A DNA stretch of 64,000 nt, from the IMG/VR virus record IMGVR_UViG_3300025280_000025. One strand, written 5' to 3'. Below, in pieces: positions 14,360 through 60,518 of this stretch; positions within the stretch are counted from its first letter, which is position 1; each line of letters starts with the position of its first letter. The notes beneath the pieces were generated by a model. The model did no database searches, was not told the origin of the DNA, and worked only from the letters and a program-made list of their open reading frames with translations. Made by a program: the position numbers and the translations under genes. The stretch is from an uncultured virus (IMG/VR IMGVR_UViG_3300025280_000025). Taxonomy: Duplodnaviria; Heunggongvirae; Uroviricota; Caudoviricetes.

Positions 14360-14676
14360 TGGTATTGAATAGATAAGCCCAAGTAAACAGCAAGAGCATG
14401 TTCTACTCTGGCACCTTCAGACTTTTCCCATCCTCTTAATAGATACATGGCATCTACATTAAATATCTCATCAATGTCTCTCTTAAGTGCATCTTTATAA
14501 TTCACACCATACTCAGGACCATATTCTTCATCCATACGTGCGGGGTTTATTACTTCGTATACTCTTTTAGCTTCTAGTAATCTTTCTGCTTTATAAAAGG
14601 CGGGATAATTTTCCTCTTCGTGTCCTCTCATGGGACCTGCTATATATATTTTAATTCTATTATTTGTTAGTGGCAT
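14356..14676 (-). CDS. DUF4406 / nucleoside 2-deoxyribosyltransferase-like protein
   Basis: KIYIAGPMRG, INPA and GWEKSEGARVE motifs. Confidence 0.85.
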   Translation of the reverse strand: MPLTNNRIKIYIAGPMRGHEEENYPAFYKAERLLEAKRVYEVINPARMDEEYGPEYGVNYKDALKRDIDEIFNVDAMYLLRGWEKSEGARVEHALAVYLGLSIQYQ

Positions 14677-16364
14677 TCACTCCAGTTCCTTCCTATCCTA
14701 TACTCCCCATCCATAGGTATTTTACATTCTAATCTTTTTCCTGCTTCAACTATTGAACTTACACCTAGCTGTCCTATTTCTTCTGCGATGTTTGGCTTGC
14801 ACTCAAGCTGCCATTCATCATGAACAGTAGCCATAAGTTTAACGCTATCTTTCCACTCATCCTTAGAGTGTATAGCATCATAGAAGATTACCAAAGCCAG
14901 CTTCATAAGTACAGCTCCATCACCTTGTATCTGTACATTCAATGAAGAATGTTTAGATCTACACGGTACTTCTCTCTTATCTAGCAATGTTACTGTACCC
15001 TTCTTAGCTACTTGGAATTTACAATTCTCAATTAATTTCTTTAACGCAGGCATGTTGTCTAAGAACCTTTTCTTAAGTTCTGCTCCAGCACTAACACCTT
15101 TGTCAATGATCTGTCCTATTTTACCATTACCTGCCCCATAAATCAAGGCGTAAAAGAAAGTTTTTGCATCATTTCTGTCACTGAGTCCAGCTTGTTCTTG
15201 GTTGTGCTCATGTATGTCTCCGTTAAGAACCAATGCTCCGTACTCTCCATTGTCCCATGCAGCCATACGATTCGCTAACAGCCGTGCCTCTAATCCACTG
15301 GCATCAATACCAAGTTGAACCCATCCCTCTTGTGGGACAAACAGAGCCCGTGCTCTTGGGTCTCCAGATACTTGTTGTAAGTTAGGTTGACTAGCTGTCA
15401 TCCTACCTGTCACAGCACCTTGAGGATTAATTGATCCGTGTATCTTACCATCTCTTGATAGCCCAGCCCTAATGATCCAGTCAGATAACATACTGCCTAG
15501 CTTTGTCATTTCAAAACATTTAGAAAGCATCTTAGCTTCTGGATATTTTAGCTTGCTTAGTACGGCTTCATCTACCTTAGGATTTCCCTTGTCTGTTAGT
15601 GGGGGTTTCCATCCATACTTCATACCTAATCTCTTAGCAATTTGTTGCCGTGAGTTAGTGTTGAAGTGTTCAACAGAATCTTTTAACCTATTGCCTGTCT
15701 TTTCTGACCATCTCTCTGTTGTAATGGGTGGAAATATACGACACAGCTTGTCTTCTACGCCAGCCTTCTCCATCATTAGCTCTTGCTCTAGTCTTTCGGC
15801 ACCCTCTATGTCAAAGCCCATACCATTTTCCATCTGTTCGGATAGGATAGTACTTACTCTTTGTTCAGTAGTTATAATGTTATTATGATTTACTATGAAA
15901 GACTCTTGCTCTTTGTATATAGCTTCGGATACTTCTACATCTTGTATACAGTACTTAAGCATTTGCTCTGAGAAAGAATCGAATCCTCCATCATACTCAT
16001 CTTTCATAACCCTAAGCTTCTTGCCCCAGTTCTTTAAACTGTTGCCACCTAGAGGATGATTTCTAATATCAGGATACATTATCCTAGAAACAATTAGAGT
16101 ATCTATAGTTGTTACATTAATAGGACCATAGAATCTTTCAAGTACAGGTATATCGTACATGATTATGTTATGTCCTATCAAGGTGTCGGCTTGTCGTAAC
16201 AAGTTAACACCCTCTTCTATCTGGTGTTCTTTAAAAGTATAGACTTTACCTGTGTCTATATCTTTAGCTACAATACACCAGACTTTAGAAACTTCGGGGT
16301 TGTGATTTTTATCTATCGTAACTTCACGCAACCCATTTGCTTCTATGTCAAATACAAGTTCCAT
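14667..16364 (-). CDS. Family A DNA polymerase (T7 gp5-like)
   Basis: FDIEAN exonuclease I, GHNIIMYD, DASGLEAR, AKTFFYALIYG and VHDEWQ motifs. Likely start MELVFD. Confidence 0.95.
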   Translation of the reverse strand: MELVFDIEANGLREVTIDKNHNPEVSKVWCIVAKDIDTGKVYTFKEHQIEEGVNLLRQADTLIGHNIIMYDIPVLERFYGPINVTTIDTLIVSRIMYPDIRNHPLGGNSLKNWGKKLRVMKDEYDGGFDSFSEQMLKYCIQDVEVSEAIYKEQESFIVNHNNIITTEQRVSTILSEQMENGMGFDIEGAERLEQELMMEKAGVEDKLCRIFPPITTERWSEKTGNRLKDSVEHFNTNSRQQIAKRLGMKYGWKPPLTDKGNPKVDEAVLSKLKYPEAKMLSKCFEMTKLGSMLSDWIIRAGLSRDGKIHGSINPQGAVTGRMTASQPNLQQVSGDPRARALFVPQEGWVQLGIDASGLEARLLANRMAAWDNGEYGALVLNGDIHEHNQEQAGLSDRNDAKTFFYALIYGAGNGKIGQIIDKGVSAGAELKKRFLDNMPALKKLIENCKFQVAKKGTVTLLDKREVPCRSKHSSLNVQIQGDGAVLMKLALVIFYDAIHSKDEWKDSVKLMATVHDEWQLECKPNIAEEIGQLGVSSIVEAGKRLECKIPMDGEYRIGRNWSECH

Positions 16365-16950
16365 TTTGTATCTCCTGTGGTTGTACATTATCAATTGCGT
16401 CTTGAATATTTTCACAATCAACATTTAAAAAGTTTGCTATCTTAGTCATCTCTTCTTTAGTGTTGTCTAAGATATCTTCAAAGTAAACAGTTATAGATTC
16501 TATGTTCTTGTTTCTATTTAAAAACTTTCGCACCTCTCTATAATTATTTCTACGAATTACTCCAAGCTTTTGTAGAGTGGGTATGTCTTCCAACATTTCC
16601 ATTCTCTCTTGCGAGGAGGATGTCACCTTGACTTCGGCTTCGTATGCTTTCATAAGACTATTGTCTTGATCTGTAAGAGACCTCCTCTTACAAACAATAA
16701 CTTTACTTACGTGTTCAGAAGCCACCTTGTTTAACCAGTGACCAAATACTTTAACCGCCATGCCTTTAAACTGAAGTCCAACCCCAGCCATTAAGACCTT
16801 GTAGGGCAGGTCATAATAGCCTCTGGGGTTTAGTGACTTCACGGGGAAGTCTGGATGGAAGGGCATGCCTGCTATAGGCATCTTCCATATCTTCAGTGTC
16901 TGCATTAACAGGCTTGTGCCTGCCCTACCAGAGCCTGTAATTATTATCAT
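16348..16950 (-). CDS. Sulfotransferase-family protein
   Basis: IIITGSGRAGTSLLM PAPS-binding loop, NPRGYYD, KVIVCKR and YFEDIL...IANFL motifs. Confidence 0.7.
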   Translation of the reverse strand: MIIITGSGRAGTSLLMQTLKIWKMPIAGMPFHPDFPVKSLNPRGYYDLPYKVLMAGVGLQFKGMAVKVFGHWLNKVASEHVSKVIVCKRRSLTDQDNSLMKAYEAEVKVTSSSQERMEMLEDIPTLQKLGVIRRNNYREVRKFLNRNKNIESITVYFEDILDNTKEEMTKIANFLNVDCENIQDAIDNVQPQEIQNGTCI

Positions 16951-18668
16951 AACTCGTCTCGGTCTAGTACTATGTTGCCATCGTCGGCTAGTGCCCATCC
17001 AATCTCTTGCATTCTACCAGTTATGTGATCATAATACAAGCAGGATGCTACTCCAGCCTTACCTGTTAACCTATTCTTTAATACTCTAATAGTTGTTGTG
17101 TTAGCTAGGATGGGATCAGGGTTTTGCCTGTCTCTCTCTAGTGCTATAACAGTATTAGGTACACTCGACAGAGAACCCGAACCTCTTAAGTCCTGCAAGG
17201 TAATCCTGTCTCCTTCTTCATAAGCTTTCTGAGTCTTCTTGAGTTGTGATACCACATCAATATGAACTCCAGTCCTACTAACTAGTCCTCTAAGTTCTTT
17301 CATTATGTTATCAATTAACAGTCGCTCTGAGTTGCCTCCTTCATAATCATTACTAATGTTAAGCAGCCCAGTTGCAGCAGCAGTTATGTGATCTATTATA
17401 ATTACATCTACTCCTAAAGATACAGCCATGAATTCAATTCTAGAACAGAGGTTCTGTAAACCATTGTTACCTAGGTGATCATAGATATATAGAGAAGTTT
17501 CAGCTAAGGCTCTCTTGCCTTCAGCATACTCTTCATCAGTTAAATCATCTATAATGTTTAAAGATATTTCTTCTTTACCTAGTTTAGTTCTTAGTTCATT
17601 CATAATCTTAGAAGCTCTTAGTGCTCTTACTGGTTTATTAATTACCAATGAAACTAAATCATCAACAGTTTCCCGTGGTGATTCTTCTAACATGATAGCT
17701 CCTACAGATCTACCTTCTTTAAGATGATCAATTATAATCTCTCTTAGAATAGTAGACTTACCTGACCCAGTACCAGAAGTCCATAGAGTTATCTCACCAC
17801 TTCGTTGTCCCAATAGAAACTCCGTTAGAGAATCAAAGGGGAAGGGGTACACTACCTCTACAGCATCTTCTTCTAAGTCATTAGTAATAGAAGACACATG
17901 TAGTATTTCATCTGGAGAATACCTTGGTGCTTCCCATATTGCCTGAAGTACTGCCTTGCTTTCACCATTCAGTGAACATTCGTTAGCATCTTTAAAAGGC
18001 AAGGCTGCTATCTTACATTTTCCTGGTGGTAGTATCTCTGCTACTCTTTGAGATGCTTCTCTTCCTGCTTCGTCCATGTCAAACATTAAGACGATCTCTT
18101 CATAACTACTTAGGAATTCTAAGTTATCACGAACAGATTTCACAGCACCAGAAGCACCATTAGGTAGGCTAACTACAGGCCATTTGTTATCTTGAATTTG
18201 ACTGACTGTCATGCAATCATATTCACCTTCGGTAACTATAATCTTCTTACCACCTTTGTTCTTCCATAGTTGTTGTCCAAACAGTTGTGGCTTTGTAGAA
18301 TCTCCTCTCCATTGAAAGGATTTGTTTGCTCCTCTAAGTTTCTGTGCGACCACCTTACCATCTCGGTAATAGCTACTGATCTCTACTCTTTTTCCATCTT
18401 GAGAGTGAGTCAAGTAACCATATAGCCGTGCTGTCTTTACATTGATCTTGCGATCATTGATAGCTTTGGCTGTGCCTTCTAGAAACTTAAGTTCTGTCAT
18501 AGGTTTTGCTTTAACCATTAGAAGTTCCTTATTATTTTTGTGTTCATAATGTTCACAAGCAAAACAATACTTGTGTCCATCATCATATACCGCTAAATTG
18601 TCTTGAGAATTATCCCGCCCGTGCTGAGCACAGACAGGACATTGTTCCCTACTAATTACATTTGACAT
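16947..18668 (-). CDS. Primase-helicase (T7 gp4-like)
   Basis: Zn ribbon CPVC..CFAC, Toprim TEGEYD/FDMD, Walker A GTGSGKST, IIDH, LRGSG and KNRLTG motifs. Confidence 0.96.
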   Translation of the reverse strand: MSNVISREQCPVCAQHGRDNSQDNLAVYDDGHKYCFACEHYEHKNNKELLMVKAKPMTELKFLEGTAKAINDRKINVKTARLYGYLTHSQDGKRVEISSYYRDGKVVAQKLRGANKSFQWRGDSTKPQLFGQQLWKNKGGKKIIVTEGEYDCMTVSQIQDNKWPVVSLPNGASGAVKSVRDNLEFLSSYEEIVLMFDMDEAGREASQRVAEILPPGKCKIAALPFKDANECSLNGESKAVLQAIWEAPRYSPDEILHVSSITNDLEEDAVEVVYPFPFDSLTEFLLGQRSGEITLWTSGTGSGKSTILREIIIDHLKEGRSVGAIMLEESPRETVDDLVSLVINKPVRALRASKIMNELRTKLGKEEISLNIIDDLTDEEYAEGKRALAETSLYIYDHLGNNGLQNLCSRIEFMAVSLGVDVIIIDHITAAATGLLNISNDYEGGNSERLLIDNIMKELRGLVSRTGVHIDVVSQLKKTQKAYEEGDRITLQDLRGSGSLSSVPNTVIALERDRQNPDPILANTTTIRVLKNRLTGKAGVASCLYYDHITGRMQEIGWALADDGNIVLDRDEL

Positions 18669-18793
18669 TAACTACTCCATGGCATTTTTGTTTTCAGCCA
18701 GTTCCATAGTGGAGTGCCAATCAATGCTCCCGCTACGAATACTACTATTGAATAAAATACTGTACCTAATGCACTACTTAAAATTACATCCAT
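18668..18793 (-). CDS. 41-aa single-TM peptide (not in ORF track)
   Basis: MDVILSSALGTVFYSIVVFVAGALIGTPLWNWLKTKMPWSS; RBS AAGGAG; TAATG-coupled to gp4. Confidence 0.7.
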   Translation of the reverse strand: MDVILSSALGTVFYSIVVFVAGALIGTPLWNWLKTKMPWSS

Positions 18794-19175
18794 CAGTTTT
18801 CTCCTTGTAAATTTCCATTACTATTTTGCCTGCCCATGCTAATGAGATTGCACCTGTTGCAATCACTACGGGAAGGAAGAACCAACTAGCATACAATGCT
18901 AGTGCATAATTTAATATAACAAATAACACTCCACCTATCAACGGCCTCCAACCCATTCGTCCACCAGTAATAACAAGAAGAGCCATACCGCTAAGAGTAC
19001 AAATACCACCAAGCCAGCCAAGCATAGGACTACAGCTAGAAACTGGAGTACTAATAATCTCAGAAGCTTGAGCAATCTTACTATTGGGTGTACTAAATAT
19101 GTTTTGAAATCCATTACAGCCTCCTAGTATTGCGAATACTAAACCCCCAAAAATTTTTTGCAATATTTTTCCCAT
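18774..19175 (-). CDS. Lipoprotein-signal protein with ~3 C-terminal TM helices
   Basis: ILGGC lipobox. Homolog at 31738-32127. Confidence 0.7.
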   Translation of the reverse strand: MGKILQKIFGGLVFAILGGCNGFQNIFSTPNSKIAQASEIISTPVSSCSPMLGWLGGICTLSGMALLVITGGRMGWRPLIGGVLFVILNYALALYASWFFLPVVIATGAISLAWAGKIVMEIYKEKTDGCNFK

Positions 19176-19187
19176 ATTTTCTCCTTA

Positions 19188-19568
19188 TCAAAGTTCATTA
19201 ATTCCTAATATAAAATAACCACCATCATAACAGTTCGGTGCCCATTGTTTACAGGCATAAACTTTTTGAATCTGAGTATCATCTTCCCACAATACTCCAT
19301 TAAATGAATCGAATATTGCTTTAAGATAATTATCTATATCAGCTCTCGGAGCCGACAGTTTTGTTTTCTTGGGACGTTTAACATATATTTCTACATCCAC
19401 TTCTAGTGGTGAAGTATATGGAATCGTAGCTGAATCAAACATTTCTTCAACTAAATTCGCCATGTCTTTTCGAAAAGTTTTATAAGGGCCAGCAAAGTAG
19501 GCCCCATGTTTTGTAACACGGGGTCTACTGGCTGCCACTGGACTAATTGGGAACGTCCACTCAGGCAT
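19188..19568 (-). CDS. rusA: RusA-family Holliday junction resolvase
   Basis: P....RPR and DIDNYLKAIFDSFNGVLWEDDTQI motifs. Confidence 0.9.
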   Translation of the reverse strand: MPEWTFPISPVAASRPRVTKHGAYFAGPYKTFRKDMANLVEEMFDSATIPYTSPLEVDVEIYVKRPKKTKLSAPRADIDNYLKAIFDSFNGVLWEDDTQIQKVYACKQWAPNCYDGGYFILGINEL

Positions 19569-21173: not shown

Positions 21174-23615
21174 TTACGCAAAGAAATAATCGGAGATTAA
21201 TACTCTAGTTATATCTAAAGTCCCCTTCTTTGGCACCTTAGGAAGTATAATCCCAAGTTGCTGTTGAACGTCCTCTTTAAACTTTTCTAATTGATTAACG
21301 CTATGAATATTAACAAACTCTTCTCTTAATATATCACGCATATCATCTACATAATTACAATGGCAGCCATATGAGTCGTGTATCATACACAAACTCAGTA
21401 TTCCTATTCGTGTTAGCCTAACTATTGTCATAAACATATGTGCAGCATCTAAACTGTGGATAAAGTTAGGAGCTATTGCTTGAGAAGCACCTCTTTTATT
21501 TACATCGTTAGATGCAGTAAAAAATGTCAGCTCTTTATTACCAAACAGTTTAGATACAGATCGCCTTGTGTTGATCTGATTGTAATGATGCACTACTTTA
21601 AACCCTGAAGGGGTAGTATATTCTACATGTTTATTTAAATCATTTGCTATAGAAATTATTTGTTTAAGATAATCTTTACCTTTGTTAGGTTCCTTAAGAC
21701 ATCTGTCCATGCTTGCTTTAATAGCACGGGCTAGCTCAGTTATAGCTCCACCCTTTTGGGCATCATCTACCCAGTCTAAGTGTCCTTCTACTTTCAAATA
21801 CTTTTGTATCCCATAGAAAGTAAGACCATACGGGTCACACATTGTACTACGCTTAGTAACTTTTCTATCAATAGCTTCATTCCAATACTCTAAGAAGTTC
21901 TTACACCACGGTATCTCTTCCTTGTGATGAGAACAATAGTCAGTTACTGCATCAGCAATGTGTTGATATAGATCTTCGGGAGTATCCTTCGGAATGATTC
22001 CAACCTTCTCTCCAATTGCAGCGTCACCCATAATGGCAGCCCAGTGTTGTGCTCCGTTGCATTGTCCGTCTAGTTGTACTGATACATAAGACATACCATC
22101 TTCTCGACAGTAGTCAAAGATAGCAGCCAGTCTTTGGAAAGACTTGTTCTTCTTCTTCTTGTTGTCTATCCATTCTTTATTCTCATAAGGATCTTCAGCT
22201 ATTCTTCTTATCATTTCTTCATTATCTTCTGTCCACTTAGCTCTATCATTAAGTGAAACCTTATCATAGTCAAACAGATTTGCAAGGTTAACTCTTTGCC
22301 AGTACCTGCCTCGCTCAGTAACCTTTACTCCATTAGAGAAACAGGCTAAGCTTTTATCAAAGTCAGATGACTGTGGGCTTAGTAATTCACAGCTTGTATA
22401 AGCTCTACCACGAAAGTCTAATGTAAATACATGATAAAAGTATTCCCATTTCATTAGGTCTGAAGCAAGTTGTAATCTGATTAGCATTCGCCCTCTGGAT
22501 TGTTCTTGTTTATACCAGTCCGACCATGCACCCTGCCTCCGTTGGCACCAAATTGCTTTGTCTACTTTACCCCCATCTTTAGGGTATTCTTCGTTGTACA
22601 TAAACTCTTCAAAAGAATAGCAAGGTAGGTTGGCTAGCTGTGTATTGTTTTTAAACAGCGTCTCCATAACCTCTAACACTTGTTCATTTACCTTCCACTC
22701 TGTTAACATTAAACTATTCAGCCCACTTATAACCTTATCAGAGGGTTCAGAATACTTCTGTTCTTTATCACTCTCTCCAAAATAGTTTGACTTAAACCTC
22801 TGGACCATAGGTTTTCTCATGTTTGTTTTAATATATCCTCCGCTTGCATTTTGTGTATGCAATTCAGGAGGAATAATCATTGGTCTGTATATCAGAGAGC
22901 TTGTCTCTAGTAACTGATGTCTTCTGTGTAGCTCTTCCAAGATTGAATGATGAAACTCTACGAAAGTATATCTTTTAAATGTATTACCCCTCTTAATTGG
23001 ACGGGTGTCCATAAAAATAATGTTACTATCAGCAGCTATCCTTAACATGTGGTGCCCGAAGTCATGCTGTTGTTTTATAGTTAACCTCATGTCCTCTTCT
23101 ACCTTTTTACTAAAGGCTTTACATCTTTTGGGTGTCCAATTCTTAATGAACTTAGATTGCTTCATCCAGTCTACTCTATAATTGCTCTTAGCTCTTTGGT
23201 AGGCAACGATATCTAACGCATCCTTAGCAATCAAAGTTGAAACGCTCTGTGCTAGTGGTGGAGTATGGAACTCTTCGTCAAGTTGTTGTCCCCAGAATCC
23301 ACTCGAAAACCAGCATCGTATAACAGCCCTAACTGCTATGTCTGCCATCTTTGATGCCCCTAATTCGAGCAAAGGTGTGACCCACATAGGAGTCTTAGGG
23401 TTCTGTACTATCTTGTCTATCCACTCTTGATAAACTTCAGTCAATTCTTTAACCGAACTATCTAACAGCTGTTGTTCGGGCAGCCCTTCATCTGGTGCCC
23501 TGTTATAATCATCCCAGTATTTAGATCTACTATAAATTAGCATATCATTTTCATAAGATACTTGTGCCTTACGTCTATCACTTTTCTTACTATCTGTTTC
23601 GTTAGCCCATTTCAA
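21174..23615 (-). CDS. Single-subunit T7-like DNA-directed RNA polymerase
   Basis: DFRGRAY, DGQCNGAQH, RKVTKRSTM..PYG, APNFIHSLDAAH and IHDSYG motifs. Confidence 0.97.
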   Translation of the reverse strand: MKWANETDSKKSDRRKAQVSYENDMLIYSRSKYWDDYNRAPDEGLPEQQLLDSSVKELTEVYQEWIDKIVQNPKTPMWVTPLLELGASKMADIAVRAVIRCWFSSGFWGQQLDEEFHTPPLAQSVSTLIAKDALDIVAYQRAKSNYRVDWMKQSKFIKNWTPKRCKAFSKKVEEDMRLTIKQQHDFGHHMLRIAADSNIIFMDTRPIKRGNTFKRYTFVEFHHSILEELHRRHQLLETSSLIYRPMIIPPELHTQNASGGYIKTNMRKPMVQRFKSNYFGESDKEQKYSEPSDKVISGLNSLMLTEWKVNEQVLEVMETLFKNNTQLANLPCYSFEEFMYNEEYPKDGGKVDKAIWCQRRQGAWSDWYKQEQSRGRMLIRLQLASDLMKWEYFYHVFTLDFRGRAYTSCELLSPQSSDFDKSLACFSNGVKVTERGRYWQRVNLANLFDYDKVSLNDRAKWTEDNEEMIRRIAEDPYENKEWIDNKKKKNKSFQRLAAIFDYCREDGMSYVSVQLDGQCNGAQHWAAIMGDAAIGEKVGIIPKDTPEDLYQHIADAVTDYCSHHKEEIPWCKNFLEYWNEAIDRKVTKRSTMCDPYGLTFYGIQKYLKVEGHLDWVDDAQKGGAITELARAIKASMDRCLKEPNKGKDYLKQIISIANDLNKHVEYTTPSGFKVVHHYNQINTRRSVSKLFGNKELTFFTASNDVNKRGASQAIAPNFIHSLDAAHMFMTIVRLTRIGILSLCMIHDSYGCHCNYVDDMRDILREEFVNIHSVNQLEKFKEDVQQQLGIILPKVPKKGTLDITRVLISDYFFA

Positions 23616-23953
23616 GAGTTAAGTTCCTTCATAGCTTTGTCGAATTCTTCTTGGGTTATTTCACCTATAGCTAGATCATACCGCAAGCCCCACTCTTTAT
23701 GGGGTATACTAACAGGTCTTTGCTTGTCGCCTTTGCCAGCACTCTTTTCATTCCAAGCAGTAGGTGTCCAGTTACTACCGTCCTGATTGTAACCATCACC
23801 TTTCCCATCTCGTTTTCTTCTTAATAAATTCTTTGGATTGTGCGGATCATTTTTTAGTTTACGAACCTCTCCGTCTTCACCATCACCTTTTTTCTTCCAG
23901 CCATCTGGATCTCCACCTTCAACATAGCTCCCTTGTTTCTTTTTCTTTGGCAT
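23612..23953 (-). CDS. Hypothetical basic protein (AGKGDKQRP motif)
   Basis: RBS GAGGAG; ATGA-type overlap with RNAP. Confidence 0.6.
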   Translation of the reverse strand: MPKKKKQGSYVEGGDPDGWKKKGDGEDGEVRKLKNDPHNPKNLLRRKRDGKGDGYNQDGSNWTPTAWNEKSAGKGDKQRPVSIPHKEWGLRYDLAIGEITQEEFDKAMKELNS

Positions 23954-24051
23954 TAATAATCTCCTCTGCAGTATTGGATTATAAATAGAATTATAATAAC
24001 TATTGCTAAGCTTATTCTCATAGGCATTCTGTCTTTTTCTGGATCAGTCAT
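23953..24051 (-). CDS. 32-aa TM peptide (not in track)
   Basis: MTDPEKDRMPMRISLAIVIIILFIIQYCRGDY; TAATG-coupled to the next gene. Confidence 0.45.
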   Translation of the reverse strand: MTDPEKDRMPMRISLAIVIIILFIIQYCRGDY

Positions 24052-24078
24052 GGATCATTCATGGATCATTCCTTATTA

Positions 24079-24626
24079 TATGGGCTTCAAGAGCCTGCCT
24101 TATGCTATCATCGGACGTACCTAAGCACTTAGGCGGTTGAGGCTCCCTGAGTATAGTCTCTTTCGGGAACTATACCACACCCATAGATTTAAGTAGCCCA
24201 GAGCAGGTGTGCTTTATATTTTATCCTGCTTTACTAGTCGCACCGTAGTGCTACTTAGATTGTTATCACTCTCCGTTTACTAGTGTACGCAAGGGACGGA
24301 GTTAACAGAATTCTCATTAGCTTTATGGGTTTATTTCCTCAAGCCAGTACACCTGTACCCTCTGATAGTGATATTAAATTGTCGGGGCAAGTAAGAACGT
24401 GGGCGGGTACCTCTCCGCTTTGTCTCCTGTCACCCTGCCTTTCGGCACTCGGCGAACTTACTTAACCCCATTAGATTGTCGGTAGGTTACGCCTACCAGT
24501 CGAGTATTTTAGACCCTATACTAATGGGTTTCGAGTTTTACAACTTCACAGGTTGTTGTATAGTAGAGATGCCTTGGCTACGAGTAGCCCAAATCTCTTG
24601 AACCCGTTGAGGCCGTGGTCCTATAC
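24079..24626 (-). ncRNA. Tandem array of ~8 compact structured RNA modules (array 1)
   Basis: No credible ORF. Back-to-back closed stems, GAAA/GUAA tetraloops on the minus strand, and four modules repeated in array 2 with compensatory changes. Confidence 0.7.
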
Positions 24627-25610
24627 TAACGAGAGTGCATGACGCATAACACGGGTAGAATTCTTGGCTGCTTCACCGATCAGCTTGTTGCTGATAGTAG
24701 CCTCGGTTGTACGACGCTTACGGTTTTGTAGCCAGTTCGTTACCGCATTAGCTGCGATCCATGCACTGTTACCAAACTCCTCTTGTTCTCTATCAAATGT
24801 TTCAGACCATCCATTAAGTATAGCCATAGCTTTCTTACGAGAGTTATGCTCTTCTTCAGTATAGGATGATCGTTGCGAAGGTATCTCACCTTCAAACATT
24901 GTGTAACAGTCACGCCAGAAGTTTGTTATCTCTTCTCTGTCCCATTTCTTAAGACCTAGTGTACACACTGCTGCTCGGAACTTAGCCTTGTGGTTCTTCC
25001 ATTCATCCAGTGCTTCTTTAAGTCCTAAGATCTTATCTTCCATGTCACCTTTGTGACGTAGTTTAATCATACGCTGTGATCCTTCACTAATAGCCCAGCT
25101 CAATGTGTTGTTACATACAACCCTGACTGAGGTAGGTAGTGCAGATAAACTTAGCGTACCATTGTGACTGTTCATTAAGCAGAGATACTCATGCATCTCA
25201 TCGTTGCCATTCACAGCCCACTCACTGTCCTTCATAAGGACATATGACTGTGCTCCATTGAACAGTGTGCCTGCTGTCTCGACCTGTAATCCAGGTACTG
25301 AGCCAGCAATGTCAAACAGTTCGCTGTTCTGTACAATCTTATAGTTCTTATTGACTACACCTAATACTTCTTCAGTATCAGTACGTACAGTAGCATGGAA
25401 TTTACTAGGCAATGTATAAAGCTTACCATAATAATCATCATTGGCATAATCAGCTACTAAAGGTTCAGACAGTACCACATTAAAGCCCATCTTAGCAAGT
25501 TGCATTGCTTCGTAGGGTGTTGGTGCATTCTCAACGACTGTTCCCAGTCCGTGCCATGCAGGCTTACCAACGTATACGGCATGGTCTTGTTCGTACATTT
25601 CATGTGACAT
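24621..25610 (-). CDS. DUF932-family (phage/plasmid-like) protein
   Basis: PAWHGLG, YKIVQN.ELF and NSHNG...TSVRVVCNNTL...HKG motifs. Confidence 0.9.
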   Translation of the reverse strand: MSHEMYEQDHAVYVGKPAWHGLGTVVENAPTPYEAMQLAKMGFNVVLSEPLVADYANDDYYGKLYTLPSKFHATVRTDTEEVLGVVNKNYKIVQNSELFDIAGSVPGLQVETAGTLFNGAQSYVLMKDSEWAVNGNDEMHEYLCLMNSHNGTLSLSALPTSVRVVCNNTLSWAISEGSQRMIKLRHKGDMEDKILGLKEALDEWKNHKAKFRAAVCTLGLKKWDREEITNFWRDCYTMFEGEIPSQRSSYTEEEHNSRKKAMAILNGWSETFDREQEEFGNSAWIAANAVTNWLQNRKRRTTEATISNKLIGEAAKNSTRVMRHALSLV

Positions 25611-25618
25611 AAGTTCTC

Positions 25619-27712
25619 CTATTCATCACTGTACTTTTCCCAATCGACATCATCCCAACGTTTGAGATCGTCTTTTATTGCCTGTCTCTTGGGTTTCTTT
25701 TTCTTTTTTTTAGGACGATCAGGTTCGGGCTTGTGCTTCTCGTACCTTATCTTCCGCTTTTTTGAGCTCATATTCCTCCATGCCTAAATAGAATTCAACG
25801 ACATCACCAGCTGGAACCCAGCCAGAATCCTCACGATAGACGAAACCATCATCTGTGAAGTCGAGAATCATTCCTAGTTTACGCATTTGTTCTAAACAAT
25901 TATCAGATATTTCTATCTTCATATCTGTCTCCTTAGCAAACAGCTGTATACAAGGCAGCTTTGCCTAGTATAACTATAAGTCTGTTCCAATACAGCATCC
26001 TCATATTTGAGTCACTCCATATTTAACATCCCAATATTTATTTTCTTTATTCCAATTACATTCCATCATTTCAGCCATGTAATCACATTCATAATCAAAA
26101 TCATCAGAATCATAGCCAGTTAAAGTGCCAACAATCCTAGTATAAATTGCTTGATCGACATCATCTGTGTATTGTACCATAATTGTATCGTCTGTCAAGA
26201 CCAATTGTGAATAATTATCATTATATTTTCCATCGCCGTATTCATAGTACCCTATCCCAGCACTTTCTACAGTATAGTCTAAGGTTTCTTTTATTAACAC
26301 ACGAATATCTTCTTCAGATACATAGTTTACTTCATTCATCTTTTATCTCCTTGAGACTAGCTTCTAGTTCTTCCATACTAAAGTTTAGTCTAGTATTAAA
26401 GTTATTTTCAGCTCTATTGAAAGCACCAGCTACTATATGTTCGAGGTCTTTCTCGAAGCCTATCATAGCATCAGAAATTAGGCTATCTATGTGCAGTTCA
26501 GCCCATGTCTTTAGCCTGTCTTCTATAACATCCCATATTCTATCTTGTTCTATATGAAGATCACAGATTATATGTCTGTCGCTCATTTCTTATACTCCTT
26601 TACAGTATAGATTATTCCATCACTCTTTTTACGTAGGCTATTAAAGTCATTGGCATCCTTAACGGCCTCTGATTTCTTATAGTATACAGCAGGCTTCCAG
26701 TCACCGTCGACTATCCAGCCACTATCCTTTACTCTAATGCCCCATTTCTTTACTCCTCGCATGGTACCTCCTTGGTATATGTATCCATACACTCGTCATC
26801 ACAGCCGTTACACCATACATACTCATTAAAAGAACCATCAGCATAGTCATCGCCTGTTATAGTATCATCGTGTAGTTTTTCCAAGGGTATCATTGCATCA
26901 TAGCCTTGCCATAGATCTGTACTATGACACTCACTACAGTGTTCAGTTATCTTTTTCATTCTTATACTCCTTGTGTTGCAAAGTATACTACAATGGCAGT
27001 ACTTACAATCACCTGTATTGTTATTAATACTATGGCAATGCGATTCATTCTTCGTTGCTTGGCTTGTAGTTCTTTATATTTCTGATTCATTCTTCCTCCT
27101 CAAGTGCATCTTCAAAGTAGGAATGATACTTCTTAATCAAGTCATCAACCCAATCCACATCACCACAGCCATGTTGTCCACCACATGCGTGATAGAACTG
27201 ACCACAGACATCCTTCCAATCGGGATCATCCCAATCAATCGCTTGCTTTGGCATCGTATTCATCCTCATCTATAAAGTCTATTCGTTCAGTGTTACAATC
27301 ATCACACCAATTATATTCCCAAGGGTAGTCAAGACCGCCCCTCACAGGCACATCATAGTCGTGACCATGAGTGTTGTTAGGATCATACATTGCTATGTGA
27401 CCCTCAGTTATATTAGTTCCCCCGCATTCGCTACATACCATTGTCACGGTTAGCCTCCTCACGCTCATCTATTTCATTTTCTTCACGAGATTCCATATGC
27501 TTAGTCATCCACTCATCATACTCAACACGCTCGACATCCCAGTCTCGCAGCTCCCCATCCTGTGTCTCCCAGTTATCCCACTCACCCACATAAGGATCTT
27601 TATCAAATATTGCACGGGCTTCTTCCTCTGACTCCGCCTCGACATAGCACTCACATGTTTCCCATGTGGTACTGGTTGTATTGATATCTATCCTATAGTA
27701 TTTCTTAGTCAT
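25619..27712 (-). other. Cluster of ~11 small acidic early genes, including two paralogous Zn-ribbon proteins (26750-26959, 27235-27468)
   Basis: Tightly packed minus-strand ORFs with AGGAG RBS; CSEC...WCxxC in two of them. Confidence 0.7.
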
Positions 27713-27737
27713 ATTGTTCTCCTGTGTTGGGTTAGTA

Positions 27738-28281
27738 ATTTCTTGTGCGGAGAGCCTTCCCTTTCTTAGGGATTCAACTATTTTAGGCTCTTACTCCGCT
27801 ATCAAGAAATAGATTGTGGAGGAGTAGTAGAGATCGGGGTGCTTTATATTTTATCCCGCTTTGGTCGACATGCACCATACTACTACTCCCCCTCTAGAAA
27901 ACCCCCACTAATATTTCTATTAGTGAGGGCGTGTGTAGTAGAGATGCCAAGATTATCTCTATTAACCCGTCTAGCCGTGGTTCTACACAATGGTATTTTA
28001 GACCCTATACCAATGGGTTCGCAGTTTTGGTACACACATGCTCAGGTGAGTAGTGTCTCGTTATCACACTTGTGAACCGCACACAACACGGGTTGATGGT
28101 TGCTGTTGGTGTTAACTTTATTTAAGGGGACCCTTCACCAAATTCAACCAATTAGTAGATACCCTCCAGTCCGAACTATGTAAGACCGAATTACAGTTCA
28201 AGCCCAGCCTAAAGGCACATGACTTTCCGGAAGGTACCTACTAAATGGGGCTCCCGTCATCGGGAAGAATCGGGGAGCCCT
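27738..28281 (-). ncRNA. Tandem array of structured RNA modules (array 2) spanning the segment A/B junction
   Basis: Homologs of four array-1 modules in a different order, plus further multi-stem elements at 27738-27810, 28091-28149 and 28152-28243. Confidence 0.7.
27896..27929 (-). terminator. Intrinsic terminator inside array 2
   Basis: CCCUCACUAAUA-GAAA-UAUUAGUGGGGG-UUUUCU. Confidence 0.65.
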
Positions 28282-28302
28282 AAGAGTGGGGGTGCTGAAT
28301 TA

Positions 28303-28827
28303 TTAACCCCCTAGTAGGGTCATGAGGTATTCACTCTTGTAAGTGGTAGTGCCACGTTCAGTATAATTGCATCGAATCATACATGCAACAGTAGAGTCGC
28401 CATTTAGTTTGGTTTCTACCTCATCGAATGCCGAACCTAGATCAGTTGGCTCATAACCAAGGATGGTTTTGAGGTGACCCTTCAATCTACTGAGTTCGAT
28501 ACGTGCCCGTATTTGTGATCCTTCATGTGTAAGTAAAGAAGCATCGTGTGGGATGGTCATGGGAGCACCATTCCAAATCAATGGTTCTGTTCGGTCAGGG
28601 TCTTCACAGAGTTGATAGTGAAATTGAACAGATACTGCAGGGAATTCTTGTTTGTCATCTGTTTGACGGAAGGTTCCATTTTGTACATTCATTCCGAGAA
28701 CATAACAAGCGTGTTCACCTTTGGGGGGCCATTCTCCTAATGAACCCATCCCTTGGTCTGCGGTTGCGGTTTCGAAATCCGATTGCAAGTTTGAGAAGAT
28801 TGCCTTCGTCTCATTACTAATGCTCAT
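28303..28827 (-). CDS. Putative SSB (DUF669-like OB fold)
   Basis: WPPKGEH pattern; lies downstream of an AAA ATPase and exonuclease. Confidence 0.55.
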   Translation of the reverse strand: MSISNETKAIFSNLQSDFETATADQGMGSLGEWPPKGEHACYVLGMNVQNGTFRQTDDKQEFPAVSVQFHYQLCEDPDRTEPLIWNGAPMTIPHDASLLTHEGSQIRARIELSRLKGHLKTILGYEPTDLGSAFDEVETKLNGDSTVACMIRCNYTERGTTTYKSEYLMTLLGG

Positions 28828-33769: not shown

Positions 33770-34041
33770 TCTTGACCTCTACCATATTTTAAAACAATAT
33801 CTTCTATGTTTTTTTGTGCTTGAGAGAAGATTCTCCCTATATCTCTATAAGAGAATCCTGAATTATGAAGCCGAAGTATTCTTTTTTCTTTTGGACCCCC
33901 ACTTTTAATAGGTGCATTATAAGGTAAATTGTGCTTTTTGGCTATGTGATATAAAGATTTGGATTCCATCTCTAGTTCATTAGCTACTTCTTTTATACTA
34001 TAACCTGCACTCAAAAGGCTCTTTACTTTTTCTTCATTCAT
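33766..34041 (-). CDS. Tandem helix-turn-helix protein
   Basis: GYSIKEVANEL and GFSYRDIGRIF. Confidence 0.7.
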   Translation of the reverse strand: MNEEKVKSLLSAGYSIKEVANELEMESKSLYHIAKKHNLPYNAPIKSGGPKEKRILRLHNSGFSYRDIGRIFSQAQKNIEDIVLKYGRGQD

Positions 34042-36140
34042 GACCAGTCATACTCCAAGGGTATTTCGTTTCCATAATATTCAGAGATCATACTCCAATA
34101 TCCTTCATCTTGTACAAAAGATACGGCTTCTTTTACTAATTCAGTAAGTTCTTCTGCAGCATCCTTATTAGCAACGTCGAAGTAGATTGCATCATAGATG
34201 TTTAAGAACATATGCATGTTAGATTTAGGAGAATTTAAACTAGGCATTGATTTATGGAGATAACTTTGAATGCTTATCAATATATTACTTGCTGTTGTTT
34301 GAACAGGGAAATTTACGATCTCATTTACTTCATATTTGTCTCCTCCAAGGAAATACCTTGATTGTCCTGTAAAGGGTAATTCTATTCTTCCATGGAGACG
34401 AGCAGTAAATATTAAGTCTTTTTGAAAAGCATATAGTTTGGGTCTATGTTTTCTACGACTTTTAACAATAACTTCACATAACCCCATATCTAGTTCTATA
34501 CCTGACATTGCAAGTACTTGTTTATGGATAACATCAGAACCTGCACGGAATAAGTCTGCAAAGTTAACCATCTTACCTATTTGTCTTTGTTTATTAGTAC
34601 ATGTAGTACCACCAAAGATTTGTAGAGTTCTTTCTGTATGTAAATCTCTACCTTTTTGATAGGCATCTATAAATGCATTATCACCTGATAGTAGACCTGC
34701 TACACGCAACTCTATCTGTGATAAGTCCATAGACATTATGTAACCTTCTCTAAACCTACTGGTTATACATTCTTTAATCATAGGAGGAAAGGTCTGTGCA
34801 GATGGCTTCTTACAGGTAATGCGACCTTGTAAGGTACCCCCACTACCACCTTCATTATTCTTAGCATAGGTGGGAGTAGCATACCATGTGGGATATGCTA
34901 TATGATGTCCGTTGATTGGTATAAGCCGAGCAGCTTCATCAGTAGATTTATTTCTTCTATGTCTTAATAATGGGTATGTATAACTACTTATTACCTTTTG
35001 AGCACCTGCATGTCTCTTTGCTCCATCAAATACTCTTATAAGTTCATGGGCTTTATAGTCCCAGGTTGAAAGATTTCCAGTGCTGTTACTAACTTTATCT
35101 TTTAATTCATTTTGTAGTTTATTTCTATTTGCTTCTGTGAAACTTACAAGTCCTTTTGCTGGTGTAAGTTCCATTTCATCTCTTATTTCATTACCTATTA
35201 ACCAAATTGCATCATCCATTAGTTTTTGTTTTGCTGTGCCGCTCCCTTCGCCTTCTAGCGGGTATCCGGCTTCGGTTGCGGCTTCGTTTGCTTCTTTACA
35301 TAACACTAATAGTGTGCTCTCTATCTTTTCTAACTTTTCTTTGTCCATACATATACCTGATTCGGACATTCGGATGATTGTCCATAGTAGGTCGGAGTAA
35401 AAGTGCAAACAAAAGGTTGAAAGTTTATTCGTATTAGGAAAGTCTCGCTCTATTCTTCGAGCGAGTTCCCTAATAGCGAGTACTGTGTTATGTGTATCCT
35501 GTGCGTTGTATTCTTTTAATTTCTTGTCTGCTATAGATCGAAATCTTCCATCTTTAAGAGTGTTTTCATATGTGTGAGTGCGGAGTATTGGACCTAAACT
35601 TTTGAGACTCTTTTCTTGTCGTGTTTCATCGTGAAGATAGTTAATTATTGAGAGGTCTATTAATAGTTGATCTTCTAATGCGAATCTAAATTCTGGGTCT
35701 TTTCTAATGTATTGGATATCAAATGGGAGGTTCATTCCAATAATTACTTTTGAGTGTGTTAACCATTTTTGCAGTCTTATTCGATCAATCGTATCTGAAA
35801 GATTGAATACCATCGTCTTTTTTGGATTTATCTTCTTCAAGTTTGGAAAGGATAACCCCTCCAACTGTGATAACAATACGGGCAAGTTTTCTGATATCGG
35901 GATCTTTGATTTCTCTTGTGGATTCCAAGGCTCCTTCGAGAGCATGTCTTGGGTTTCGCATTGGTCTTCCTTAACTAATGTGATTGAGGCGGTTACTATT
36001 AAATCGCTTAAATCTACGCTATCCGTATGCATAGATCTCGCAGGGTGAAATACGGTCTGTTTAGATAAAAGATTGCCTCTGTATCCTTCCTCAACAGCAC
36101 CATAAGTCTCTATATCGAGACTAATAATTTGAGTGTCCAT
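34038..36140 (-). CDS. Family A DNA polymerase with variant motifs B/C
   Basis: LDIET, NLPFD, YNAQD, GTLQGR, DLSQIELR, KMVNFADLF and IYDAI motifs. Confidence 0.9.
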   Translation of the reverse strand: MDTQIISLDIETYGAVEEGYRGNLLSKQTVFHPARSMHTDSVDLSDLIVTASITLVKEDQCETQDMLSKEPWNPQEKSKIPISENLPVLLSQLEGLSFPNLKKINPKKTMVFNLSDTIDRIRLQKWLTHSKVIIGMNLPFDIQYIRKDPEFRFALEDQLLIDLSIINYLHDETRQEKSLKSLGPILRTHTYENTLKDGRFRSIADKKLKEYNAQDTHNTVLAIRELARRIERDFPNTNKLSTFCLHFYSDLLWTIIRMSESGICMDKEKLEKIESTLLVLCKEANEAATEAGYPLEGEGSGTAKQKLMDDAIWLIGNEIRDEMELTPAKGLVSFTEANRNKLQNELKDKVSNSTGNLSTWDYKAHELIRVFDGAKRHAGAQKVISSYTYPLLRHRRNKSTDEAARLIPINGHHIAYPTWYATPTYAKNNEGGSGGTLQGRITCKKPSAQTFPPMIKECITSRFREGYIMSMDLSQIELRVAGLLSGDNAFIDAYQKGRDLHTERTLQIFGGTTCTNKQRQIGKMVNFADLFRAGSDVIHKQVLAMSGIELDMGLCEVIVKSRRKHRPKLYAFQKDLIFTARLHGRIELPFTGQSRYFLGGDKYEVNEIVNFPVQTTASNILISIQSYLHKSMPSLNSPKSNMHMFLNIYDAIYFDVANKDAAEELTELVKEAVSFVQDEGYWSMISEYYGNEIPLEYDWS

Positions 36141-44852: not shown

Positions 44853-46256
44853 TTAACACAAGTCCTCGAAACTTTTACGGAGGCTCAAACCTTTTAAGCC
44901 CCTCTTTCCCCCGTGTGGTCGATGTCTATTCACTTCCCAACTACTTTGCGTTTCTATTTTTATCGACAATTGATTCCTTGCGACGTGAAGATTCTTTATC
45001 GAGTTCGTTTTCAACCAATTATTCCATTGTAGCCACAATAGGTCTGTAGCCACGAACCCACTCTCTCTCCTTATGAACCTCTCCTCCAAGAAGTAATCAA
45101 ACGGATTGTTCTGCAGGTGGTACATCTGTATCGTATCACTTGCTCTACTAGGCAACGGGAACTTGTTTTCTTCGGCTTCCAAGTCAATAGCACCCTGTAC
45201 TGCCCACGCAGCGATCCCCTCTAACTCCCCCAACAACTTGTCAATCAGATACGGGTCCTCATGACCTTCGAAACTCACATCAAAAGGAAGCACCAGCATC
45301 TTACTACTAAGACCTCTACCCTTATTAGGTAACGAGGGTATCTCATTAGCCTGCACTATAGGTGCTGCATTGATTATCATGTTTCTCATCTGTCTCTTGT
45401 ATTTGACATTCACGGTAACGGGGTCTTGTCCAATTATGTTTTTCAGTACTCTTGTGGCTTTTTCTCCTTCTCTTCCATCCAGCTCACTAACCTCACTGAT
45501 ACAAAGAACCCTAGAATGCTCCAATCCATCCAACCCAAAATCATTAGACAAATCGTCTAAACTACTATTCATAAACGCATCGCGCCCCAACAGGGACTGT
45601 AACACTTTACCAATAGTACCCTTACCACTCCTGACCTTCCCATACATGAGTAACCACCTAGCATGTCTTCTATGATTCATGAGGCAGTACCCCATCCATC
45701 TCATCAACAACATACTCCACTCTGGATCATTGTTACCCCACTCTTCCAGGCACTTCATCCAACGAGGACATTCGGCAGCAGGATTGTAATCCACGGGAAT
45801 AACTACCGGATCAAACCAATCCTCGGTTCTCTCCACGATGTCTCCCGTCTTCGCATCCACCAATACATCCTGAAACGCGATCACACTACCCGCATCTCTA
45901 CTGGGATCATTCAACCATATAGGGATGTTAGAGTGGGGGATCCTAATTCTAGCAGCCAGCCCCCTAACGATGTTGTCGATCTTCTGCTTGTTGGGTGCTA
46001 TCCTTCTAACCCGAGGTAACCCATCATTACCTATCTCTTGATAGTACGAGTCTTCTAGTTCTTTCCAACAAAGATCTTCCAACCATTCTATTTCTCTTCG
46101 CTCCCAACGGTCCCCGTACCATTGGTAGAAGTCTCCTCTAAATGCCCATAGACCACACTTTCCAGAGGGAGTTCTAAATACTCCTCTCAACAGTGCATCT
46201 GCAATTTTCATGGGCTCTGCAGAAGTTAGTGGTCTGTCTTGAGTTCCAACAGACAT
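44853..46256 (-). CDS. D5-like (P4 primase-family) SF3 helicase
   Basis: GKVRSGKGT Walker A, ISEVSE, LKNIIGQD...KY and ANEIP motifs. Likely start MSVGTQ. Confidence 0.88.
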   Translation of the reverse strand: MSVGTQDRPLTSAEPMKIADALLRGVFRTPSGKCGLWAFRGDFYQWYGDRWERREIEWLEDLCWKELEDSYYQEIGNDGLPRVRRIAPNKQKIDNIVRGLAARIRIPHSNIPIWLNDPSRDAGSVIAFQDVLVDAKTGDIVERTEDWFDPVVIPVDYNPAAECPRWMKCLEEWGNNDPEWSMLLMRWMGYCLMNHRRHARWLLMYGKVRSGKGTIGKVLQSLLGRDAFMNSSLDDLSNDFGLDGLEHSRVLCISEVSELDGREGEKATRVLKNIIGQDPVTVNVKYKRQMRNMIINAAPIVQANEIPSLPNKGRGLSSKMLVLPFDVSFEGHEDPYLIDKLLGELEGIAAWAVQGAIDLEAEENKFPLPSRASDTIQMYHLQNNPFDYFLEERFIRRESGFVATDLLWLQWNNWLKTNSIKNLHVARNQLSIKIETQSSWEVNRHRPHGGKRGLKGLSLRKSFEDLC

Positions 46257-46274
46257 TACTGTATCCTTTACATT

Positions 46275-48599: not shown

Positions 48600-49162
48600 G
48601 TGAACAGTTTTACATAGGGTTTGGGTCAGGGATAAAACTATTATCTGAGGAGTGGTACATCAAGGAGATGGGTCCTGATATTACCAAGAAAGCCTTCAGA
48701 GCTTTTTGTAGGGCTCTTCAAGTTCCAATCATAGAAATAGGCAAGACTTCCTTTGTTGAGATGAACTCGTTCCAACTTGCACTTAAAGCAATCACTAGAG
48801 TGGGGGAACCAGACTTTTATGTGTCGGGTTGTCTCTCTATAGCAAACGGAAAGAAGAGACCTTCTAAGTTAGCGGTTGATTATGTAACAAAGAATCTCGA
48901 ACCTCTTCTATGTGAGTTACTTGCGTGTAAAGCATTAGGGGGACTTTCTTTAACAACGGAAACTAAGTCTGCTGCTCGAATTGCAGCCGAGAGAATGGCT
49001 AGAGCTGGCATAGGAGAAATGGCAGTAGAGTTTCAAAACGAGTACACCAAGAGATCAATTCGTGTGTTTAATGATGTAACACTACAATCAAAGAGTATAC
49101 TGGACTTATATGAAGAAGAATTTGACGAAGAACCCGACACTGGGGAAGATACAGAAAGTTAG
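48596..49162 (+). CDS. Hypothetical protein
   Basis: In the operon before terminase. Confidence 0.6.
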   Translation: MSEQFYIGFGSGIKLLSEEWYIKEMGPDITKKAFRAFCRALQVPIIEIGKTSFVEMNSFQLALKAITRVGEPDFYVSGCLSIANGKKRPSKLAVDYVTKNLEPLLCELLACKALGGLSLTTETKSAARIAAERMARAGIGEMAVEFQNEYTKRSIRVFNDVTLQSKSILDLYEEEFDEEPDTGEDTES

Positions 49163-49682
49163 TTCCGAAGAAGTAGTAACTTCTTTTTATGGATTAGATG
49201 GTGCTGCTTCGGCTATCAAAGCATCAAACTTTGATATCATGGAGGAAATCACTATGGTGATTCAACACACGAGAGATCCCGATCCTAAAGTTAGTCTCCC
49301 AGCGTTGCGTCACTTCAGGAGTTTATTGAAAGAGCTGGTACTATCAAACGGCATGATAGGAACAGTTAAACAAACAGAGACATTGCCAGATACGAACGTA
49401 AGTCGTACAATGTCATCTTCAACACTGTTAACTAACCTTAGGAGTCAAAATGGCCAAATCCAAGATCAAGTCGAAAGAAAACACGAAATCCTCCCGGCCC
49501 ACGGTGGCGAAAAAGAAGACAAAAAAGAAGGCAGTAAAAAAGGTAGAAAAGGTAGAAAAGGCAGAAAAAAAAATACCTCTAAGTCCAACAGCATCAAATG
49601 CAGTCTACCTTCTTCAGATGATGACAATGATGGAAATGATCCAAGTATCAGCACCAGCCATTCGGGACTTGGGAATCTATGA
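49110..49682 (+). CDS. Hypothetical protein, candidate terminase small subunit
   Basis: Position and helical core only. Confidence 0.35.
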   Translation: MKKNLTKNPTLGKIQKVSSEEVVTSFYGLDGAASAIKASNFDIMEEITMVIQHTRDPDPKVSLPALRHFRSLLKELVLSNGMIGTVKQTETLPDTNVSRTMSSSTLLTNLRSQNGQIQDQVERKHEILPAHGGEKEDKKEGSKKGRKGRKGRKKNTSKSNSIKCSLPSSDDDNDGNDPSISTSHSGLGNL

Positions 49683-55000: not shown

Positions 55001-55020
55001 AAAAGTAAAGGAATCTCAAG

Positions 55021-56634: not shown

Positions 56635-56661
56635 TCCGTAAATATATCCTCCTGTGTTGGG

Positions 56662-59885: not shown

Positions 59886-60518
<633 letters not shown>

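Follow-up and report, generated by a model that had tools for sequence, protein, structure and literature searches.

Module H, a small folded RNA element, occurs in two copies within a 64,000-nt stretch of DNA (hereafter the window) from an uncultured virus of the Caudoviricetes (IMG/VR record IMGVR_UViG_3300025280_000025). The element is well supported as a real, uncatalogued structured-RNA cassette with regard to its closing stem as well as its overall fold. It represents one cassette of modular intergenic arrays, a context that had been missed in an earlier inspection of the letters of the window (hereafter the sequence-only reading). With respect to its function, we tentatively favour, with slightly less than even confidence, an early-expressed and compactly folded non-coding RNA module, the invariant surface of which would act as a specific binding site or decoy. 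At present, Module H may be regarded as a sound candidate motif.

Both copies are located on the minus strand, the strand of all genes neighbouring Module H, and reside exactly at the positions proposed for them in the sequence-only reading (Table 1). On this strand, copy 1 reads GUAUAG-GACC-A-CG-GCCUCAA-CG-GGUU-CA-AGAGAU-(22-nt L3)-AUCUCU-A-CUAUAC and copy 2 reads GUGUAG-AACC-A-CG-GCUAGA-CG-GGUU-AAU-AGAGAU-AAUCUUGGC-AUCUCU-A-CUACAC. The helices claimed earlier can be read off directly, i.e., P1 as GUAUAG/CUAUAC versus GUGUAG/CUACAC, P2 as RACC/GGUU and P3 as AGAGAU/AUCUCU, and the extra hairpin attributed to the L3 loop of one copy is found in copy 1. One copy had also been described to start on the stop codon of a gene for a DUF932 protein; this is copy 1, in which the 5' strand of P1 (GUA-UAG) consists of the last sense codon and the stop codon (24623-24621) of that gene.

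For both copies, the minimum-energy fold of the minus strand is a three-way junction, with z -3.09 and -2.92 as compared to -1.04 and -2.28 for the less well folding plus strand. All seven variants folded share one three-way junction as their minimum-energy fold, as had been predicted, and the G-U pairs of P1 and P2 are compatible only with the minus strand. The two arms, P2 (4 bp, bulge, 2 bp) and P3 (5-7 bp), are about equal in height. The strands joining the helices comprise 0 nt for J12, CA, AAU, UA, UUAAU, AUCGAU or CAC for J23, and A, UAA or G for J31. Within the window, the core pattern ACCACGGC-N3-12-GGGTT matches twice, as compared to no match in 100 shuffles, and a covariance model run over the whole 64 kb with filters off retrieved the two copies as sole matches at E<1e-4.

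A coding function was ruled out, since the variants measure 56-81 nt, differ in length by numbers that are not multiples of three, and possess no reading frame open throughout. With regard to a match to a characterised Rfam family, named in the sequence-only reading as a refuting outcome, none of the 4227 models of Rfam 15 matched the window at gathering thresholds, and a search with permissive filters (E<=10) across 23900-28400 returned three weak matches, none of which lies over Module H. ARAGORN detected no genes in the window or in nine related loci. Module H itself lacks a U-run and is, therefore, not an intrinsic terminator. Neither this motif nor such arrays of phages with a T7-type polymerase were found described in a full-text literature search.

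The covariance-model search for homologs and the survey of genomic contexts, both of which had been proposed in the sequence-only reading, yielded modular intergenic arrays and, after removal of identical cores, nine distinct variants from viral and metagenome contigs (three long forms with the L3 hairpin and six short forms). Module H is present at six of the 12 loci with relatives of the DUF932 gene, and the phages carrying it are diverged (65-100 % DUF932 identity in either case). Strong model matches (E<=3e-6) were obtained in 20 of 29 related whole records, a proportion not to be read as a frequency, since most of these records had been picked for pattern matches; they contain one copy each, and one of them, an inverted-repeat assembly, displays Module H twice. 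The window carries the element twice, many relatives once.

Pattern scans of differing stringency contributed to this set. A scan with 20 specified bases returned 44 loci with 27 distinct sequences, 11 of which are true Module H and 16 GC-rich chance matches; the matches listed by a scan with 14 specified bases were GC-rich chance matches throughout and were discarded. When L2 and L3 were not specified, 15 of the 16 viral loci proved true and were already known (the remaining one, L210, being a chance match), and nine of 40 metagenome loci were true, adding one new P1/P3 variant (L282). A long-form scan with free loops yielded seven true loci out of 23, all of them known and none representing a new long-form variant; the other 16 had no model match at E<=0.1. 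Among 185,579 bacterial and archaeal species representatives, 23 pattern matches were obtained, the best with a model score of 21.7 bits and none of them credible within the limits of the pattern used. A weak model match inside a polymerase gene (L201) was rejected as chance.

In the alignment of the nine variants, the rows of which are related and fitted to the model, 94.7 % of the 171 cells hold standard pairs, as compared to 21-49 % after a shift of the 3' partners by 1-3 columns. Eight of the 19 pairs change on both sides, and none of 500 shuffles reached the covariation score, a control that does not represent a probability. The signal originates almost entirely from P1 (GUAUAG, GUGUAG, UGUGCG, UGUACG, UAUGUG and UAUACG), with double changes at six of seven pairs. 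One double-change pair each was found in P2 (ACC/GGU versus GCC/GGC) and in P3, and two variants have additional extension pairs in P3. No variation is seen in the bulged A, the GAGAU/AUCUC core of P3, the inner pairs of P2 or, within the two states described below, the two loops; the P2 and P3 cores, being invariant, neither support nor contradict pairing. The hairpin inserted in L3 differs among the long forms yet pairs in each of them (GGCUA/UAGCC versus GAC.UGC/GCAGUC). Overall, compensatory changes keep the helices on one strand only, and a freely drifting P1 encloses an interior of strong sequence constancy.

A covarying kissing loop had been the most specific claim of the sequence-only reading. 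The underlying complementarity is real and, as it was expected to be, kept in all homologs: in the nine variants the first bases of L2 are complementary to the last bases of L3 (GCCU with AGGC in long forms, GCUA(G) with (U)UGGC in short forms), and the latter are single-stranded beside P3 in every fold. The covariation is weakly supported, as only two L2/L3 states occur across the nine variants, which differ by a 1-nt deletion in L2 and by A-to-U changes in L3. This corresponds to at most one compensatory event, confounded by the L2 indel. Searches with free L2 and L3 revealed only GCUAGA together with AAUCUUGGC in the 15 true viral and nine true metagenome matches, and no third loop state was found in these scans. 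Moreover, shuffled loops of the same composition pair equally well in 9-16 % of 2000 trials per variant; in statistical terms, pairing between the loops cannot be told apart from chance. With two states only and with shuffles pairing as well, a kissing contact between L2 and L3 is plausible, not demonstrated. The similar heights of the arms would be a requirement of a side-by-side arrangement.

The gene-free arrays harbouring Module H measure 500-1100 nt in the window and in relatives (L182-L196, L282) and consist of self-contained modules in a row, each closed by pairing of its 5' and 3' ends. The modules are separated by a strand-specific linker, ACAAU(C/U)UA plus one base (ACAAUCUA linkers), which on the gene strand always follows a 3' stem strand and precedes the next 5' strand. 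Array 1 of the window is situated between the DUF932 gene and an open reading frame (ORF) of 113 aa, which in turn precedes the gene for a T7-type RNA polymerase. Other modules of the window fold as well, with z -3.7 for the GGGGAGUAGUAG module and z -1.4 to -2.4 for the others.

The order of modules varies among phages, with Module H being preceded by a gene stop, a linker or a block termed D1 (see below) and followed by various modules. In three marine runs, contigs join segments of the window arrays in a different order, such that block 28092-27993 is located directly after copy 1, as in L196 (joints 24502/27992 and 28092/24558). In one contig (depth 11) of run X14, the interior of Module H is replaced at 24555-24634 by a 6-nt loop, leaving a plain P1 hairpin with the DUF932 stop codon in its loop, and in relatives an unrelated module resides inside the same gene-end stem. 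P1 is, therefore, part of the site, with the invariant interior behaving as a cassette. A number of related contigs terminate in or close to arrays, which together with the reordering suggests a hypervariable region that breaks assemblies.

Copy 2 is followed by a hairpin resembling an intrinsic terminator, and the same terminator module follows Module H in the relative L193; Module H together with this hairpin folds with z -5.7 in the window and -5.6 in L193. Altogether, a terminator hairpin is found after Module H in two of nine variant contexts and is absent from the other seven. In L193, a promoter-like TTCACT-16-TATAAT is located 65 nt upstream of Module H with one hairpin in between. D1 occurs in only two copies in the 64 kb; 5 nt separate the end of its TAAAAT from P1 of copy 2, and it also contains a TATAGGG core of the T7 type. 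The ~100-nt conserved region holding D1 is unstructured as RNA (z about +0.3; +0.31), which fits a role at the DNA level, and D1 is considered a candidate promoter. Strong sigma-70-like promoters for the downstream protein genes come after the arrays. As a side observation, ACAATCTA was considered as a promoter of the phage polymerase and rejected, with its upstream side being the preceding stem, its downstream side varying, and the motif not being found ahead of late genes.

The arrays of relatives contain a tag-less mini-tmRNA (transfer-messenger RNA) of ~80 nt, which matches Rfam family RF00023 with 51.8 bits (threshold 47). It comprises the tRNA-like domain only (acceptor stem and T-arm GGUUCGAAUCC), 288 model positions for tag and pseudoknots being absent, and ARAGORN makes no call on it. 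In L282 it is located directly 3' of Module H. Both are compact, stem-closed RNAs of the same arrays; Module H, however, has no T-arm and no acceptor/CCA-type end and is not matched by tRNA or tmRNA models, which match the neighbouring module instead. The tmRNA match is the best argument for the arrays acting as RNA and for at least one module imitating a host RNA.

Read from the gene strand, Module H presents a variable closing stem, P1, carrying an invariant interior, which is composed of hairpin P2 with its bulged A (loop GC(C)UAGA or GCCUCAA) and the P3 hairpin of similar height. Pairing of (A/U)GGC at the end of the P3 loop with the start of the P2 loop would lock both arms side by side. 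We infer that the arrays are transcribed early and that Module H becomes part of a small, stable RNA, presumably as its last domain ahead of an intrinsic terminator in two lineages. A protein of the host or the phage would then bind specifically to the rigid, sequence-invariant surface of Module H or be decoyed by it; this step, taken alone, is a guess and rather doubtful. The MS2 operator, a classic protein-recognition hairpin, is built from a stem, a bulged A on the 5' side, 2 bp and a small loop. P2 shares this bulged-A layout with coat-protein operators of RNA phages (MS2 or PP7 type), and Module H differs from them in loop sequence and size, the second arm and the closing stem. To our knowledge, no coat-like protein is known in the phage carrying Module H.

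More far-reaching, and distinctly unlikely, is the view of Module H as one cartridge in an "RNA anti-host island", i.e., of swappable arrays of compact, stem-closed RNAs, each of which would imitate or trap a different host factor, with Module H as a new pseudoknotted aptamer for one target. Such an island would comprise the arrays at the head of early genes, including the tag-less mini-tmRNA, and its targets would be ribosome-rescue, RNA-processing or defence proteins or a signalling nucleotide. If true, it would be the RNA counterpart of protein-coding anti-defence gene islands.

Several points weigh against a binding site or decoy. In addition to the limits on covariation and loop pairing given above, GGGC on the 5' side of L3 is an alternative partner for GCCU in the long forms, and a terminating ribosome would open P1 in copy 1. 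As seen from the bare-hairpin contig, that site can do without the interior, and the interior might be invariant through recent horizontal spread of the cassette rather than through selection. The binding partner is putative and a matter of guessing, and no RNA-binding or RNA-processing family was recognised among the 71 window proteins. The hairpin after Module H is missing from the output of the terminator scan, and no RNA run is among the runs listed as containing the stretch.

Alternatively, the modules might serve as RNA punctuation or as 3'-end guards, in that they mark cuts at the ACAAUCUA linkers (e.g., by host tRNA-processing or RNase E-type enzymes) or block 3' exonucleases; upstream mRNA would be stabilised, and no specific partner would be involved. 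This explanation is unlikely, even though it would account for copy 1 beginning on the DUF932 stop codon, for the sequence after the stop, which in our reading can pair back onto the last codons at all 12 DUF932 loci, for one strain having only a simple hairpin at the DUF932 end, for the fixed placement of linkers between a 3' stem strand and the next 5' strand, and for the tRNA-like (tmRNA) unit in the arrays. A plain hairpin would suffice for such purposes, leaving the invariant loops and the bulged A unexplained, and Module H does not always reside beside a linker or gene end. Loops that are invariant while stems drift could also point to a base-pairing regulator, with GCUAGA and AAUCUUGGC as seeds pairing in trans with host or phage RNAs or with AAUCUA linkers, and Module H, terminator hairpin and U-run together form the classic layout of a small RNA. 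We regard this as improbable: as read from the sequences, UAGA of L2 is complementary to UCUA of the linker and L3 repeats its AAUCU, but the complementarities extend over only 4 nt, the long forms have no AAUCU in L3, and L2 of copy 1 has UCAA instead of UAGA. Little credence is likewise given to an element acting at the DNA level, either as a recombination cassette or as a folded single-stranded DNA signal for replication or priming, with the ACAATCTA core as crossover site. The G-U pairs are favourable only as RNA and on one strand, the arrays hold a tmRNA-like gene, and no recombinase family was found among the window proteins. The reshuffling, gain and loss of modules among near-identical strains, the contigs often ending at arrays, and the precedent for shuffling provided by promoter-early stem-loop (PeSL) cassettes of T4-type phages (PMC2839356) would favour such an element; shuffling and RNA function are, however, not exclusive.

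In the sequence-only reading, invariant unpaired bases had been taken to suggest a ligand, protein or catalytic pocket. What stays constant are the loops, the bulged A and the inner helices, and the short, variable strands of the junction make a riboswitch- or ribozyme-like pocket at this place unlikely. A riboswitch-type aptamer sensing a small molecule and controlling the terminator after it is accordingly rated as very improbable. In purine riboswitches (RF00167), long conserved junction strands form the ligand pocket, and loops of 7 nt kiss in a fixed pattern. Module H recalls these aptamers in its three-way junction, its two hairpins of similar height, which may lie side by side and pair by their loops, and its variable closing P1, and in two lineages a terminator follows 2 nt after it. 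However, its junction strands (0-6 nt) are not conserved, with 0 nt for J12 and variable lengths of 2-6 nt for J23 and 1-3 nt for J31. Seven of nine variants have no terminator after Module H, no alternative pairing between Module H and the terminator and no consistent expression platform were seen, and no Rfam riboswitch family matched at E<=10. Hardly conceivable is a self-cleaving ribozyme cutting the array into units. As in hammerhead ribozymes, three stems meet at one junction and distal loops may touch, and a multi-unit transcript would be at hand for cleavage. The catalytic core consensus of hammerheads at the junction, CUGANGA ... GAAA, is absent from all nine variants, no Rfam ribozyme family matched at E<=10, the junction is not conserved, and only one type of array module has this fold. 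Module H resembles purine aptamers and hammerheads only in gross layout and fails their defining features.

At the level of arrays, the nearest precedents are the early RNAs of phage phi14:2 and the PeSL cassettes. In the Cellulophaga crAss-like phage phi14:2, the transcripts of two early intergenic regions exceed those of most genes and are persistent (Drobysheva et al., preprint 10.1101/2020.03.07.982082). Like the present arrays, these regions are long stretches free of genes in the early part of a marine phage genome and lie on the gene strand; they differ by phage lineage and polymerase type, and they have been shown to be highly transcribed and stable, as is predicted for the arrays described here. 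PeSL cassettes mediate modular shuffling among closely related T4-type phages (Arbiol et al. 2010, PMC2839356). Like the present arrays, they consist of small regulatory units that recur in plastic early regions and combine a promoter with a stem-loop; PeSL cassettes flank small protein genes and are simple promoter-plus-terminator units, whereas the arrays here are elaborate folded RNA cassettes without ORFs, the shared core of which is an 8-nt linker. If it holds up, Module H would provide a new and well-defined fold for the poorly understood early non-coding RNAs of phages, and the clade would possess early spacers consisting throughout of folded RNA cassettes that can be exchanged, including a mini-tmRNA. 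The arrays would then represent a compact, testable system for effects of phage non-coding RNA on the host during the first minutes of infection.

Table 1 Coordinates of Module H, its substructures and associated features (window positions unless a locus is named)
Feature	Position	Strand	Details
Module H copy 1, long form	24626-24558	-	69 nt; covariance model 26.4 bits, E 1.7e-5
Copy 1 P1	24626-24621 with 24563-24558	-	
Copy 1 P2	24620-24617 with 24604-24601; inner pairs 24615-24614 with 24606-24605	-	bulged A at 24616
Copy 1 L2	24613-24607	-	GCCUCAA
Copy 1 P3	24598-24593 with 24570-24565	-	
Copy 1 L3	24592-24571	-	22 nt; free 3' AAGGC at 24575-24571
Copy 1 hairpin inserted in L3	24589-24576	-	GGCUA-CUCG-UAGCC
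Module H copy 2, short form	27988-27933	-	56 nt; covariance model 83.7 bits, E 3e-23
Copy 2 P1, possible extension by one pair	27989 with 27932	-	
Copy 2 L2	27975-27970	-	GCUAGA
Copy 2 L3	27954-27946	-	AAUCUUGGC
Intrinsic-terminator-like hairpin	27897..27930	-	13 bp, GAAA loop and UUUU; starts 2 nt after copy 2
Module D1	27993..28028	-	36-nt block AAAACUGCGAACCCAUUGGUAUAGGGUCUAAAAUAC, upstream of copy 2; promoter-like
Module D1, second copy	24504..24539	-	downstream of copy 1; sigma-70 scan: TCGAAA-17-TAAAAT
Intergenic array 1	23954..24620	-	667 nt; order: H, D1, four stem-closed modules
Intergenic array 2	27713..28302	-	590 nt; D1, H, terminator hairpin, GGGGAGUAGUAG...CUACUACUCCUCC module, linker
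Linker	24472..24479	-	ACAAUCUA; after hairpin GGUAGG-CGUAA-CCUACC
Linker	24375-24382	-	ACAAUUUA
Linker	24256-24263	-	
Linker	27810-27817	-	
DUF932 gene	24621..25610	-	PF06067, E 2.4e-37; last sense codon and stop form 5' strand of copy 1 P1
Mini-tmRNA (outside window)	L183:1290-1371	-	RF00023 match
Mini-tmRNA (outside window)	L282:1124-1202	+	RF00023 match

The window genes around Module H are those of an uncultured marine phage. Besides the T7-type single-subunit RNA polymerase (gene at 21174-23615), the window encodes a T7-type portal protein, a primase-helicase, a family A DNA polymerase and a ribonucleotide reductase. Among the 25 matches listed, the RNA polymerase shares at most about 25 % identity with those of cultured phages, and none of 50,697 phage records was matched by 23900-28400 in a blastn search. 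The carriers of Module H form an uncultured clade of ~65-kb marine phages with T7-type RNA polymerase; related IMG/VR records judged complete measure 65-68 kb. All DNA runs containing the stretch are labelled marine or seawater. The nearest record (G001) overlaps with the window only at 18000-19467 and does not contain Module H.

In total, two genes for family A DNA polymerases and two primase-type genes (T7-type primase-helicase and D5-type) were observed in the window, and a plus-strand structural block includes a terminase and an SU10-type adaptor, with the T7-type portal gene being located on the minus strand instead (polymerase, primase and structural genes at 14667-16424, minus; 34038-36140, minus; 44853-46322, minus; 46239-60522, plus). 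Such a gene mix is unusual for a phage with a T7-type RNA polymerase.

Additional minor observations concern the arrays. At loci L121-L132, the last DUF932 codons can, as read from the sequences, pair with sequence farther downstream, whatever module intervenes. A hairpin GGGCUCCC...GGGAGCCC at 28240-28295 (minus strand), poor in its U-run (CAUUUAG), opens array 2 directly after a 174-aa gene and is kept in L186, L188 and L193. Recurrent module classes include GGGGAGUAGUAG...CUACUACUCCCC hairpins, a ~150-nt GUUACCU...AGGUAAC module and a ~180-nt AUGAGGUAGGAA... module, besides others. Finally, the small hairpin preceding a linker at 24480-24497 (minus strand) covaries among phages (L186, L188, L127 and L131) with its loop remaining constant, the versions being GGUAGG-CGUAA-CCUACC, GAUGGG-CGUAA-CCCAUC and AAUGGG-CGUAA-CCCAUU.

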